Source of the DNA: Escherichia coli
Lineage (GTDB): Bacteria; Pseudomonadota; Gammaproteobacteria; Enterobacterales; Enterobacteriaceae
Length of the DNA stretch: 64,000 nt
Direction: 5' to 3' (one strand)
NCBI RefSeq assembly: GCF_030013595.1
Contig: NZ_CP122768.1
Shown here piece after piece: positions 2,915 to 41,054 of the stretch. A program made the translations under genes and the position numbers. The notes under the pieces are model-generated. The model was not told the origin of the DNA. It saw only the letters and a program-made list of their open reading frames with translations, and did not search any database. Every line of letters starts with the position of its first letter. Position 1 is the first letter of the stretch.

Positions 2915-4639
2915 GTGGATAACGTTGAACTTTCACCCGCAACACGCTGGGGGATGATTGCTACCGGATTACTTCAGGGTCTGGTTTGCTACCTGCTGAT
3001 CGCCTGGCTTGCCGGAAAAAATCTCAGTTGGATTGTTTATGGCGTGCCTGCGACCGTCGCGTTTTCATCCGTTTTACTCTTCTCCGTGATCTCCTTTAAA
3101 CAGAAGCGCCTTTGGGGATGGCTGGCGCTGGTGTTTATTGCCACGCTGGGAATGAGCGGCTGGCTGAAGTGGCAAACTGATGGCATGAACCCCTGGAGAG
3201 CTGAAAAGGCGCTTTGGGATTTTGGTTGCTATCTGCTGCTGATGGCAATGTTGTTGCTACCGTGGATACAACAAAGCCTTCGCATCCGCAATGACAGTAA
3301 CCGCTATCGCTATTTTTACCAGTCAGTATGGCATAACGTACTTATATTACTGGTGATTTTTCTCGCCAATGGCCTGACGTGGCTGGTGCTTTTACTGTGG
3401 GGCGAGTTGTTTAAACTTGTTGGCATCACGTTTTTCAAAACGCTCTTTTTTGCAACTGACTGGTTTATTTATCTCACGTTAGGTCTGGTTACCGCGCTGG
3501 CGGTGATCCTCGCGCGAACACAGTCACGTTTAATCGACTCTATTCAAAAGTTGTTAACGTTAATCGCTACGGGGTTGCTGCCGTTAGTATCATTGCTAAC
3601 CCTGATGTTTATCATCACCCTGCCGTTTACGGGCCTGAGCGCGATTTCTCGCCACATCTCCGCCGCTGGGTTGCTGTTAACGCTGGCCTTTTTGCAATTG
3701 ATCTTAATGGCTATTGTCCGCGATCCGCAAAAATCGTCACTTCCCTGGACGGGGCCGTTGCGTTGCCTGATTAAAACCGCTCTGCTGGCTGCTCCGCTGT
3801 ATGTGTTCGTCGCCGCCTGGGCGTTATGGCTGCGGGTCGCTCAGTACGGCTGGACTGTCGACCGCTTGCAGGGCGCGCTGGCGGTGCTGGTGTTACTGGT
3901 ATGGTCGCTGGGGTATTTTGTCAGTATCGTCTGGCGTAAAGGGCAAAACCCCCTTGTTCTTCAGGGCAAAGTGAACCTTGCGGTTTCGTTATTGGTGTTG
4001 GTAATACTGGTGCTTCTTAATTCTCCGGTGCTGGACAGTATGCGCATTAGCGTGAACAGTCATATGGCGCGTTATCAGAGCGGCAAAAACACGCCAGACC
4101 AGGTAAGTCTCTATATGCTCGAACAGAGCGGTCGCTATGGACGTGCGGCGCTTGAGTCGCTGAAAAGCGATGCCGGGTTTATGAAAGACCCGAAACGCGC
4201 GCGGGATCTGTTGATGGCGTTAGATGGAGAGCAACATCTTCAGCAACAGATATCGGAAAAAGTATTAGCCGAAAATGTGTTAATTGCCCCTGGTTCTGGT
4301 AAACCGGATGCGACATTCTGGTCGGCCTTAATCCAGGATCGCTATAACGTGATGACCTGTATTGAAAAAGACGCCTGCGTCCTGGTCGAGCAAGATCTGA
4401 ATAGTGATGGCAGGGCAGAGCGGATCCTCTTTGCCTTTGATGATGAAAGATACATTGTCTATGGCTTTGATCCTGACAAGAAAGAATGGCAAGAGCTTAC
4501 GATGAGTTTACTTCCGCGTGATATAACGAAAGAAAAATTACTCACAGCTGCGAAGGATGGAAAACTGGGAACGAAGCCTAAAGCGTGGCGCGATCTTGTA
4601 GTGGATGGTGAAAGGCTGGATGTGAATCTGAATGAGTGA
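2915..4639 (+). CDS. yhgE: inner-membrane protein YhgE, 574 aa, GTG start
   Basis: Multi-pass hydrophobic N-terminal two-thirds; position divergent from pckA as in E. coli; GTG at 2915. Confidence 0.85.
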
Positions 4640-4670
4640 CAAAGCGCATCAGGTGTATTAGTCGTAAAAT

Positions 4671-4692
4671 CCGGCAGAGCCCTCTCTGCCGG
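4671..4692. terminator. bidirectional hairpin between convergent yhgE and hslO
   Basis: 9-bp stem ccggcagag/ctctgccgg with 4-nt loop. Confidence 0.5.
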
Positions 4693-4701
4693 ACATACTC
4701 A

Positions 4702-5586
4702 TTAATGAACTTGCGGATCTGCCGGAGACGCGTTGTTGCGGATTTCAGCAATATCCATCGCATTGAACAGATAGTGGTTACCGCAGTAATCGCAATGCAT
4801 GTCAATTTCGCCATCTTCCGCCAGGATGCTATCGACTTCTTCATCCGGCAGCGTTTTTAGCGCGTCGGCGCAACGTTCACGCGAGCAGGTGCATTTGAAC
4901 TCCACATCCTGCGGATCGTAAACCGTCACCTCTTCTTCGTGATACAAACGCCACAACACTTCGTTTGCCGGTAAGGTCAACAGTTCTTCGGTTTTGATGG
5001 TTTCGGTTAGCGTCGCCAGGTGGTCAAAGTCGTCCTGCTGGGCATTTTGCGCAGGCATTACCTGCAACAACATACCGCCTGCAGCCGGTTTGCCGTCTAC
5101 GTCGCCGGTGCGAATAAAAAGGCGCGTCGGCAGCTGTTCAGAACGCATAAAGTAATCTTCCAGGCAGGCCGCCAGAGTATCACCTTCCAGACCCACCACG
5201 CCCTGATAGCGTTCACCTTCGCTCGGGGTGATGGTGATCACCACGTAACCATTGCCGACCAGCGTTTTCAGGTCGGCATTTTCTGGAATTTCTCCCTGCA
5301 CGCGCGCTACACCGCGCATCTGCTGGTTGTTGTTACCGTTAATAACCGCCAGATTCATCGGACCGTCGCCTTGCAGCTGTACGGTGATATCACCATCAAA
5401 CTTCAGCGTAGCGGTTAACAGGCTGGTCGCAACCAGCAGTTCTGCCAGCACGTTTTTAACGGGCTGCGGATAATCGTGATTCTCAAGGATCTGTTGCAGG
5501 GTTTCCGAAACGGTTACCAGTTCGCCGCGCACGGCAAAGTTTTCAAACAGATAGCGATGTAATTGGTCATGTTGCGGCATAATCAT
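4702..5586 (-). CDS. hslO: redox-regulated chaperone Hsp33
   Basis: Translation [24 protein letters not shown]... with C-terminal zinc-binding cysteines CTCSRERC...CDYC; the start could instead be the third codon (5580). Confidence 0.93.
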
Positions 5587-5604
5587 CTCTCTTGCAGGTG
5601 ACAG

Positions 5605-6006
5605 TTATTCACTGTCGCCGTGTTTAAATCGTAACAGGTCGCGGCGCTCTTTTTTGTCCGGGCGTCGGTCCGGGTGCGGCATGGTTAAGGCATTAAGTTT
5701 ACGTGCCAGCGCCATTTTTTCGCGTTTCTCTACACTTTCCGCAGTCTCTTCATACAGCAAGGCTGCCTCGCTGGCGGGGCGACGCTGTTCAGTAATCGCC
5801 TTTACAATCACCGTGCGTTCGTCATTTCCCTGGCGCAGAGTGAGCGTGGCATTCAGCTCGACGATTTTGCTCGGCTTGCTGCGCTGCCCGTTGTAATGCA
5901 CCTTACCGCCTTCAATCATTTCACGGGCCAGCGCGCGGGTTTTATAAAAACGGGCAGCCCATAGCCATTTATCCAGTCGAACCTCAACAGCAGGTTTTTC
6001 TTTCAT
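5605..6006 (-). CDS. hslR: ribosome-associated heat-shock protein Hsp15
   Basis: 133-aa basic protein MKEKPAVEVRLDKWLWAARFYKTRALA... (S4-like RNA-binding domain), immediately upstream of hslO. Confidence 0.92.
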   Translation of the reverse strand: MKEKPAVEVRLDKWLWAARFYKTRALAREMIEGGKVHYNGQRSKPSKIVELNATLTLRQGNDERTVIVKAITEQRRPASEAALLYEETAESVEKREKMALARKLNALTMPHPDRRPDKKERRDLLRFKHGDSE

Positions 6007-6016
6007 GGCGTCTCCT

Positions 6017-6685
6017 TCACATTAGCGAGGGGATCAGGCGGCGGTAGTCATTCAGTGACGGATGGCGTTGATACTGTTTCTCGGCAATCCCGGAGTCAGG
6101 ATTAGTCACGCCGAGGCAGTAACGAATACCAAATTGCGCGGCAGCATCGAGAATCGCTTCGCTGTCATCAATAAACAGCGTTCTTTCAGCTTTCAGACCC
6201 GTAGCTTCGGCCACCGCATGCCATAACCGCTGATCCTCTTTCGGATAACCAAATGTGTGGGTGGAAAGTAATAAATCAAGGTGTGCGTCCAGACCGGTAT
6301 GCTCAAGTTTTACCGCCAGGTTGTGCGGATGCGCATTGGTGAGCAAAATTCGCTGCTTACCGCTGGCTTTCAGTGCCTCAAGAAACGGAATGGTATCTTC
6401 ACGCAGTACGGCACGCGGTCCCATCTCGGTGGTCATCGCACAGATATCCAGACCCAGTTGCTCACTCCAGTAATCAAGACAGTACCAGTTTAGCGTATGC
6501 TGTACGTCGTGATATTGCTGGCGCATATATTCCATCGCTTCCTGTGGCGTAACCCCGTTTTTCGCGCCCCATGTTTCAGGCACCAGCTTTTGCCAGAAAT
6601 AATTATCGAAGGCGAGGTCGAGCAACGTGCCGTCCATATCCAGCAGAACGGTATCTACGTCCTGCCAGGCAATGTTGATATGCAT
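6017..6685 (-). CDS. yrfG: HAD-superfamily nucleotidase YrfG, 222 aa
   Basis: HAD motif I DMDGTLLD near the N-terminus; ATG at 6683..6685 is preceded by a GGAG Shine-Dalgarno; ORF track extends 15 codons further upstream. Confidence 0.85.
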   Translation of the reverse strand: MHINIAWQDVDTVLLDMDGTLLDLAFDNYFWQKLVPETWGAKNGVTPQEAMEYMRQQYHDVQHTLNWYCLDYWSEQLGLDICAMTTEMGPRAVLREDTIPFLEALKASGKQRILLTNAHPHNLAVKLEHTGLDAHLDLLLSTHTFGYPKEDQRLWHAVAEATGLKAERTLFIDDSEAILDAAAQFGIRYCLGVTNPDSGIAEKQYQRHPSLNDYRRLIPSLM

Positions 6686-37446: not shown

Positions 37447-37568
37447 GATTGGCCTGCGTTCAAAAATAAAATGGCATAGCGGGTTATGCCGAGAGCGGGC
37501 GATTTTAGGCGATTTTGTGATCTGATTAAATGTTTTATTGCAATCGGTTGCTAAATTGCATTTTAAGA

Positions 37569-37584
37569 GGTGATTTTGATCACA
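37569..37584. promoter_or_regulatory. putative CRP site in the tsgA-ppiA divergent region
   Basis: GGTGAttttgaTCACA, a 15/16 match to the TGTGA-N6-TCACA core. Confidence 0.45.
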
Positions 37585-37707
37585 GAATAAAAAGTGATCG
37601 TCAGGTTACATATATTTCAGATACGTAAAATTAGGTAAAGGGATGGCCTTGTTCTTGAAGGCTATTTAGAATCTCTTCACTTGCTTTTTTTCTGCTCTGT
37701 TTGTTAA

Positions 37708-38289
<582 letters not shown>

Positions 38290-38299
38290 TGATTTCTCG

Positions 38300-38321
38300 C
38301 GCGGGCAATCTTGCCCGCGCT
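38300..38321 (+). terminator. hairpin downstream of ppiA
   Basis: 10-bp stem gcgcgggcaa/ttgcccgcgc with 2-nt loop; weak T tract. Confidence 0.45.
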
Positions 38322-38393
38322 TCTGCTCTCCCGGCGTAACCCGGATTTGCCGCTTATACTTGTGGCAAATGGACACGTTCAGGGAGGCATCAA

Positions 38394-38561
38394 GTGAAGA
38401 AACTCACCGATAAGCAAAAGTCCCGTCTCTGGGAGCTTCAGCGTAATCGTAATTTCCAGGCCAGTCGCCGTCTTGAAGGCGTCGAGATGCCTTTAGTCAC
38501 TCTTACTGCCGCAGAGGCTTTAGCGCGCCTTGAAGAGCTGAGGAGGCACTATGAGCGATAA
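38394..38561 (+). CDS. yhfG: YhfG, small Fic-partner (antitoxin-like) protein, 55 aa, GTG start
   Basis: Hand translation [55 protein letters not shown]; overlaps the fic start by 11 nt. Confidence 0.8.
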
Positions 38562-39153
38562 ATTCGGCGAAGGGCGCGATCCGTATCTTTATCCTGGCCT
38601 TGATATCATGCGTAACCGGCTGAACATCCGCCAGCAACAGCGGCTGGAACAGGCCGCTTACGAAATGACGGCGCTACGTGCTGCGACCATTGAGCTTGGT
38701 CCGCTGGTGCGCGGTTTACCGCATTTGCGCACTATCCATCGCCAGCTGTATCAGGATATTTTCGACTGGGCGGGGCAACTGCGTGAAGTTGATATTTATC
38801 AGGGTGATACGCCGTTCTGCCACTTTGCTTATATCGAAAAAGAGGGCAATGCCCTGATGCAGGATCTGGAGGAAGAAGGTTATCTGGTTGGCCTGGATAA
38901 AGCGAAGTTCGTCGAGCGGCTGGCGCATTACTATTGTGAAATCAACGTGCTGCATCCCTTCCGTGTGGGAAGCGGACTGGCACAGCGGATCTTCTTCGAG
39001 CAGCTGGCGATTCATGCGGGCTACCAACTGAGCTGGCAGGGTATCGAAAAAGAGGCCTGGAATCAGGCAAATCAGAGTGGGGCAATGGGGGATCTCACCG
39101 CGCTGCAGATGATATTTAGCAAAGTGGTAAGCGAAGCCGGGGAATCTGAGTAA
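38551..39153 (+). CDS. fic: Fic-domain protein with degenerate active-site motif
   Basis: 200 aa; Fic motif region [12 protein letters not shown] at residues 135-146. Confidence 0.92.
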
Positions 39154-39184
39154 AATAGCGCGGTTCTTTCGTACCGGAGCCGCC

Positions 39185-39748
39185 ATGATCCTGCTTATAG
39201 ATAACTACGATTCTTTTACCTGGAACCTCTACCAGTACTTTTGTGAACTGGGGGCGGATGTGCTGGTTAAGCGCAACGATGCGTTGACGCTGGCGGATAT
39301 CGACGCCCTTAAACCACAAAAAATTGTCATCTCACCCGGACCCTGTACGCCAGATGAAGCCGGGATCTCCCTTGACGTTATTCGCCACTATGCCGGGTGC
39401 TTGCCGATTCTTGGCGTTTGCCTCGGTCATCAGGCAATGGCGCAGGCATTTGGCGGTAAAGTTGTGCGCGCCGCAAAGGTCATGCACGGCAAAACCTCGC
39501 CGATTACACATAACGGTGAGGGCGTATTTCGGGGGCTGGCAAATCCACTTACCGTGACACGCTACCATTCGCTGGTGGTGGAACCTGACTCATTACCAGC
39601 GTGCTTTGAAGTGACGGCCTGGAGCGAAACCCGCGAGATTATGGGGATTCGCCATCGCCAGTGGGATCTGGAAGGTGTGCAGTTCCACCCGGAAAGTATT
39701 CTCAGCGAACAAGGACATCAACTGCTGGCTAATTTCCTGCATCGCTGA
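39185..39748 (+). CDS. pabA: aminodeoxychorismate synthase glutamine-amidotransferase subunit
   Basis: 187 aa; catalytic Cys in GVCLGHQ; class-I GATase. Confidence 0.95.
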
Positions 39749-39818
39749 TTTCTGATTGCTATTAAGTGATTTTTTATGCATATTTTGTGATTATAATTTC
39801 ATATTGGTTTATGCGTAA

Positions 39819-41054
<1,236 letters not shown>

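Follow-up and report, generated by a model that had tools for sequence, protein, structure and literature searches.

The Fic family has E. coli Fic as its founding member, and about 40 years have passed since the filamentation phenotype of fic-1 (G55R) was described. In class I systems (FicTA modules), the Fic protein has a small partner encoded on the same strand, directly upstream and in an operon with fic. Helix 1 of the partner ends in an inhibitory [S/T]xxxE[G/N] motif, and in the complex the Glu of this motif touches the last Arg (R2) of the Fic signature loop. The prototype is the VbhT/VbhA pair of Bartonella schoenbuchensis (PDB 3SHG, 3ZC7 and 3ZCB, the last being VbhT/VbhA-E24G with ATP). 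VbhT is plasmid-borne and toxic, carries a canonical signature motif with R144 as its first Arg (R1), and AMPylates gyrase and topo IV.

A second class I pair, Fic-1/AntF of Pseudomonas bijieensis 2P24 (PDB 8WT0), is closer to the proteins considered here. AntF belongs to the DUF2559/YhfG family. It carries SLRLEG at positions 24-29, so that S24 and E28 bear the same numbers as in YhfG, and the same lock of S24 and E28 onto Fic R146 is formed. Fic-1 has the canonical motif HPFREGNGRAQR and AMPylates GyrB, whereas E. coli Fic has V139, S141 and L143 and no detected activity. The Fic-1–AntF complex deAMPylates GyrB in a reaction that depends on AntF E28; Fic-1 E139 lies in the negative cleft described for deAMPylation. 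An altered signature motif accompanies a different donor substrate in two other FIC-fold enzymes, the kinase Doc and the phosphocholine transferase AnkX (PMC5033356, introduction). The motifs of these two differ from residues 135-146 of E. coli Fic, and the likeness drawn here is one of FIC fold alone.

The E. coli pair has itself been solved. Stanger, Harms, Dehio and Schirmer (PLoS One 2016; PMC5033356) reported crystal structures of EcFicT/EcFicA (PDB 5JFF, 5JFZ), with the complex at 2.0 A; 5JFF contains EcFicT-G55R. EcFicT and EcFicA bind each other 1:1, and the complex is stable, its Tm of 63 C falling by 10 C in the E28G variant. SRRLEG of EcFicA fits [S/T]xxxE[G/N] and protrudes into the Fic active site, where S24 and E28 bind Fic R146; R25 contacts Fic T40 and, via a water molecule, Y67. 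The inhibitory-helix Glu forms a salt bridge with R2 in this complex as it does in VbhT/VbhA, but VbhA has three helices and YhfG two, with an 8-residue deletion. The authors described the Fic motif as degenerate, noted conserved Fic surface patches away from the active site, and proposed a new substrate. They detected no auto- or target-adenylylation, even with the inhibition motif mutated. Lu et al. (2020; PMC7479194) list no AMPylation for EcFic (b3361) alone with 32P-alpha-ATP on E. coli GyrB or ParE. The signature motif is degenerate, and adenylylation was therefore not detected in the published assays. A 2026 paper (PMC13327609) still calls the mechanism of E. coli Fic elusive.

The SRRLEG helix, the altered motif and the absence of AMP transfer were thus already known, having been published in 2016–2020. 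Most of the checks proposed in an initial annotation of the DNA studied here are already in the literature: alignment with VbhTA, solution of the complex, and AMPylation assays with the inhibitory Glu present or mutated, all negative for activity. To the 2016 structure paper that annotation adds nothing. The value that remains lies in a correct annotation of the locus and in a lead concerning residue R25 of YhfG.

The yhfG–fic locus and its transcription unit

The sequence analysed is a stretch of 64,000 nucleotides of E. coli DNA (contig NZ_CP122768.1), referred to as the window; its features are collected in table 1. The initial annotation had described a yhfG of 55 aa with a GTG start and an 11-nt overlap with fic, and this was confirmed when coordinates and sequence were re-read. 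The 11 nt common to the 3' end of yhfG and the 5' end of fic are ATGAGCGATAA. Its placement of an inhibitory-type SRRLEG at YhfG residues 24-29 was read directly from the DNA, and the crystal structure of the near-identical pair puts the motif in the active site. It had also given fic as co-oriented with pabA across 32 bp. The orientation is right; the spacer, from the end of fic at 39153 to the start of pabA at 39185, measures 31 nt.

Table 1. Features of the yhfG–fic region (window positions)
Feature	Position	Strand	Evidence and remarks
ppiA terminator-like hairpin	38299..38320	+	9-bp G+C stem, -20 kcal/mol, z = -3.2 vs shuffles, followed by U-rich run
Putative -10 hexamer TATACT of the sigma-S-dependent 'fic promoter'	38355..38360	+	33 nt before yhfG start codon
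yhfG Shine-Dalgarno, GGGAGG	38382..38387	+	sequence read; 6 nt before GTG
yhfG (ecficA), FicA-type partner protein, 55 aa	38394..38561	+	ORF reading: GTG start, 55 codons plus stop; PF10832, NF007573, PDB 5JFF chain B
SRRLEG, inhibitory-helix motif, YhfG residues 24-29	38463..38480	+	[S/T]xxxE[G/N] type
fic Shine-Dalgarno, GAGGAGG, within yhfG	38540..38546	+	sequence read; 4 nt before ATG
fic (ecficT), FIC-domain protein, 200 aa	38551..39153	+	ORF reading: ATG start; PF02661, NF007672, PDB 5JFZ chain A
Fic signature loop, residues 135-146	38953..38988	+	catalytic His, anion-nest glycines and R2 kept; acidic residue, Asn and R1 replaced
pabA	39185..39748	+	co-oriented with fic

The counterparts in K-12 MG1655 are b3361 (fic) and b3362 (yhfG), between ppiA and pabA. 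EcFicT/EcFicA of K-12 (PMC5033356) are the same proteins from the same locus, and their SRRLEG and Fic 135-146 motifs are identical to those of the window. Each protein of the window differs from K-12 at one position, with D116 for E116 in Fic and R51 for S51 in YhfG. Against the crystallized pair (PDB 5JFF, 5JFZ) identity is 98–99.5%: Fic matches 5JFZ chain A over its full length (E = 8.5e-134), and the match of YhfG to 5JFF chain B spans all 55 residues. Family searches agree. Fic belongs to the FIC domain family (Pfam PF02661, residues 58-152, E = 1.1e-13) and scores 429.5 bits over its full length against the NCBIfam equivalog NF007672 (cut-off 181). YhfG is a member of the YhfG/FicA family (PF10832, DUF2559, residues 2-55, E = 1.8e-24) and scores 128 bits against NF007573, for which the cut-off is 77. 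Fic also aligns with Fic-1 over residues 1-196 (E = 5.5e-49) and with the FIC domain of VbhT (E = 1.6e-33). Against the VbhT equivalog NF045983 it reaches 140.2 bits where the cut-off is 800, which places it outside the VbhT type.

A 951-nt region around the pair is matched in 5425 of 5426 complete E. coli genomes, and 5427 of the 5428 matching places are chromosomal, one being on a plasmid. In the E. coli records listed, fic is named 'putative adenosine monophosphate-protein transferase Fic', and the partner appears as 'yhfG: YhfG family protein' or 'ficA: FicA/YhfG family antitoxin'. The allele in the window is a minority one: positions 38394-39153 are matched at 99% nucleotide identity or more in only 183 of the 5425 genomes, with 4539 others at 95-99% and 703 at 90-95%. 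The exact allele occurs in two pig isolates, HCP5S3_I2 and LCP30S3_I5. At synonymous sites this fic stands unusually far from the fic of the E. coli representative in GTDB (dS about 0.38).

The hairpin that follows ppiA forms the upstream boundary of the yhfG–fic transcription unit. Between it and yhfG lies the hexamer TATACT. Table 2 of PMC5650638, citing Utsumi 1993, gives TATACT as the -10 element of the fic promoter; according to the same source (citing Utsumi 1993 and Tanaka 1995), this promoter is sigma-S-dependent and needs no -35 element. The hexamer at 38355-38360, placed by this match, is probably the -10 element of the sigma-S fic promoter. The same hexamer was found 31-37 nt 5' of yhfG in 74 of 80 enterobacterial species. 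A scan of 38200-39300 for sigma-70 promoters returned no site, a result that is uninformative because the fic promoter is of the sigma-S type and lacks a -35 element.

The Shine-Dalgarno sequence of fic lies inside yhfG, which suggests that translation of the two genes may be coupled; most of the 80 species have an AGGAGG- or GGAGG-type sequence ahead of the fic ATG. A terminator scan found no terminator-like site in the fic–pabA spacer. Expression of yhfG, fic and at least part of pabA is probably carried by one stationary-phase transcript. Three 'terminator-like' matches inside fic were rejected, being on the wrong strand or without a T-run. An Rfam scan of 37500-40000 (E <= 1) recovered no RNA element, its single match being a chance hit to U1 (14.7 bits; the gathering score is 69.5).

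Conservation across enterobacterial species

One genome per species was scanned, yielding 80 enterobacterial loci with Fic identities from 65% to 99%. Both ppiA and yhfG lie upstream of fic in all 80, and pabA follows within the fetched flank in 78; one of the exceptions is a contig that ends shortly after fic. The 11-nt overlap is by far the commonest arrangement. Reading frames are intact for fic in every species and for yhfG in 79. This comparison reproduces the published picture.

Selection acts on the proteins. Across 137 species pairs of the derived clade defined below, dN/dS (Nei-Gojobori) is 0.075 for fic, 0.13 for yhfG, 0.072 for pabA and 0.028 for ppiA; E. albertii was left out, as its in-frame yhfG stop shifts the codon alignment. 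Purifying selection constrains fic as tightly as its neighbour pabA, which encodes an enzyme.

The description of the pair as a toxin–antitoxin-style Fic module was sound as to the class I arrangement and the motif. It does not extend to the mobility typical of type II modules: the order ppiA-yhfG-fic-pabA keeps its position in the 80 species and in 5425 of 5426 E. coli genomes. In contrast to the usual mobile modules of that type, the locus has been inherited vertically in a conserved gene order. Toxicity and its neutralization are putative for this pair. A 2024 review (PMC10886550) states that ectopic EcFicT inhibits growth, in conflict with the primary authors' own summary in PMC5033356.

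In E. albertii NBRC 107761, codon 13 of yhfG is TGA for TGG (W13*; locus L004, positions 2380-2382, equivalent to 38430-38432 of the window), and the adjoining fic is intact, encoding 200 aa with 94% identity. A yhfG stop codon was recorded earlier in another strain of this species, TW07627 (PMC5033356, S4 Fig legend), so that the lesion may be species-wide. An intact fic next to a broken yhfG argues against toxicity of Fic, and also against an essential role of YhfG gating in E. albertii.

Knock-outs of fic are viable (PMC5033356, introduction). A natural one is found in E. coli MS 21-1 (NZ_CP146670.1; locus L082, positions 3158-6176), in which an IS21-like element, ISEc10 (istA/istB), splits fic into two annotated pseudogene fragments. 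Here yhfG and pabA are intact, and fic is dispensable.

The Fic signature loop and the YhfG helix

The canonical loop reads HxFx(D/E)GNGRxxR. Residues 135-146 of Fic depart from it at three positions: V139 stands for the acidic residue, S141 for Asn and L143 for the first Arg (R1). The motif columns were fixed by alignment to Fic-1 and to the VbhT motif HPFREGNGRTLR, a comparison that the initial annotation had recommended. Its statement that the acidic residue, the Asn and the first Arg are absent was borne out.

Among 81 sequences (the 80 species and the window), H135, P136, F137, R138, G140, G142, Q145 and R146 are invariant. The loop thus has eight invariant residues out of 12, compared with 73 of 200 over the whole protein. 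Position 139 is occupied by I, L, V, A, F or T and never by D or E. In the 80-species comparison, position 141 holds N, S or T. At position 143, 72 species and the window have L, I, M or V, and eight species have R. Loss of R1 is accompanied by replacement of Fic E36 with A, S, M or T and of F67 with Y; that these changes coincide with the loss had been reported before (PMC5033356).

In a neighbour-joining tree rooted on Fic-1, the eight species that keep R143 form a basal grade, and all others fall in one derived clade. From this topology it follows that R1 was lost once, in situ at the locus. The proposal that the catalytic motif had 'drifted' accordingly needs amending. The motif is altered, but in about 72 enterobacterial species the altered loop is fixed and conserved, and purifying selection is strong. 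To speak of drift is misleading because selection maintains the altered Fic no less strongly than a genuine enzyme; the loop looks re-tuned rather than left to decay. The further suggestion of a loss of AMPylation, or of a different chemistry, agrees with published work: the adenylylation assays were negative (PMC5033356, PMC7479194), and a new substrate has been proposed (PMC5033356). The sequence observations made at the outset are thus confirmed and their interpretation is supported.

In YhfG, S24, L27 and E28 are invariant across the 80 species and G29 is nearly so; Shimwellia reads SQHLEG. When sequences of YhfG composition are shuffled, [ST]xxxE[GN] arises in 3.4%, so that a single occurrence of the motif is only mildly unlikely, and the weight given to SRRLEG comes from its conservation and from the crystal structure. 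Three class I features are present: a same-strand partner lies directly upstream and overlaps, [S/T]xxxE[G/N] ends helix 1, and the inhibitory Glu touches R2 in the solved complex (5JFF, 5JFZ; PMC5033356). A search of PDB sequences with YhfG alone matched only the protein itself. A profile of 29 YhfG sequences reached AntF (E = 0.0036) and did not reach VbhA; the homology of YhfG and VbhA therefore rests on the published structure.

A small increment beyond published work concerns YhfG position 25. Of the 72 species in the derived clade, 71 have Arg here, and Intestinirhabdus has Tyr. The eight basal species, in which Fic R143 is kept, have N, S, C or Q, and AntF has Leu. YhfG has thus gained Arg25 alongside the loss of R1 from Fic, which suggests a composite pocket; because a single evolutionary transition underlies the pattern, the co-occurrence is not statistical proof of coupling. 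The pattern of R25 (window 38466-38468) and L143 (38977-38979) was noted at loci L058, L064, L065, L071, L074, L076, L077, L078 and L080.

Function of the pair

The best explanation, in which considerable confidence can be placed, is that the locus is the E. coli yhfG–fic operon (EcFicA–EcFicT). The pair is a class I Fic/partner pair that descends from FicTA toxin–antitoxin modules and now occupies a fixed, vertically inherited chromosomal locus between ppiA and pabA, with a Fic that is probably still functional under YhfG gating. The mechanism can be outlined as follows, points (i) to (iv) being shown and the last two proposed. (i) Helix 1 of YhfG, which ends in SRRLEG, plugs the Fic active site in a tight 1:1 complex. 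(ii) S24 and E28 of YhfG clamp R146, the last Arg of the Fic loop. (iii) Fic retains the FIC fold, the catalytic H135, the glycine 'anion nest' and R146. (iv) V139, S141 and L143 offer hydrophobic or small side chains where AMP-transferases bind ATP and Mg2+. (v) Fic would be likely to act with a non-ATP donor substrate, or to bind a target. (vi) Its activity is probably gated by YhfG, and the sigma-S promoter would confine most of its expression to stationary phase. The altered pocket is conserved and the gene is under purifying selection; Fic therefore most likely retains a function. From conservation alone, we infer that it may still be catalytic. Counting against this explanation are the dispensability of fic, the broken yhfG of E. 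albertii, and the review's statement on growth inhibition (PMC10886550).

The explanation that survives next best, though on balance unlikely, dispenses with catalysis. Fic, by itself or together with YhfG, would be kept for binding or as a scaffold, and its conserved surface and pocket would serve recognition only. Such a pseudoenzyme would fit the failure of two independent studies to detect activity (PMC5033356, PMC7479194), the replacement of three ATP- and Mg-binding residues, and the conserved surface patches away from the active site (PMC5033356). It fits less well with the loop, the conservation of which exceeds the protein average. H135, the anion-nest glycines and R146 are invariant in 81 sequences down to 65% identity; a scaffold would not need them, yet they may be structural.

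It is improbable that the stable YhfG–Fic complex is itself a de-modifying enzyme like the Fic-1–AntF deAMPylase, in which YhfG would complete the active site with E28 and perhaps R25. The analogy draws on AntF, a detectable homologue of YhfG, on the close match of Fic-1 to Fic, on the great stability of the E. coli complex, and on the presence of YhfG R25 in exactly the clade that lost Fic R143. Against it, Fic has V139 where Fic-1 has E139, so that the acidic loop residue is absent, and no AMPylated substrate of yhfG–fic is known in E. coli. E. albertii retains fic with a broken yhfG, and the co-occurrence at positions 25 and 143 amounts to a single transition. A related idea, to which we would give only an outside chance, makes YhfG an obligate enzyme subunit and not an antitoxin. 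R25 lies at T40 and Y67, beside the vacated R1 site, and a composite active site could therefore exist in the complex. It would be built from R25 and E28 of YhfG with H135 and R146 of Fic; in stationary phase, such a site might work with a donor other than ATP or take off a modification.

A canonical FicT toxin that AMPylates GyrB/ParE as VbhT does, with YhfG as its conventional antitoxin, is very unlikely, and this reading has already been largely refuted. The gene arrangement and inhibitory motif are those of FicTA modules, and the secondary claim of growth inhibition in the review (PMC10886550) points the same way. The Fic motif, however, is without R1, the Asn and the acidic residue; AMPylation was unseen in two studies; and the score against the VbhT equivalog is 140 bits for a cut-off of 800. 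The gene moreover belongs to the core genome and keeps its synteny, as a mobile element would not, and it is retained in E. albertii where yhfG is broken.

That the genes are a decaying relic, kept only as part of the transcription unit that feeds pabA, with selection on DNA and not on protein, is barely credible: fic is dispensable and pabA lies close downstream with no intervening terminator, but the dN/dS values of both genes (for fic equal to that of pabA) indicate protein-level selection and contradict the idea, and all 80 species have an intact fic frame, 79 of them an intact yhfG as well.

Three minor observations concern annotation in and near the pair. Over window positions 38551-39150, Fic gives a match (E = 2.7e-75) to PDC-S04 (PDLC04838), a candidate defence family of PADLOC; a role of fic in phage defence was set aside, the gene being core, chromosomal and syntenic rather than defence-island-like, and PDC entries being untested candidates. 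A 156-aa ORF on the minus strand (38716..39186), antisense to almost all of fic, is unsupported; G+C-rich coding sequence has probably produced it mechanically. Beyond the pair, the K-12 annotation includes YrfJ (b4820), a 17-aa protein that overlaps the start of argD (locus L081, positions 4133-4186, minus strand in that locus); the equivalent position would fall near 39830-39880 of the window.
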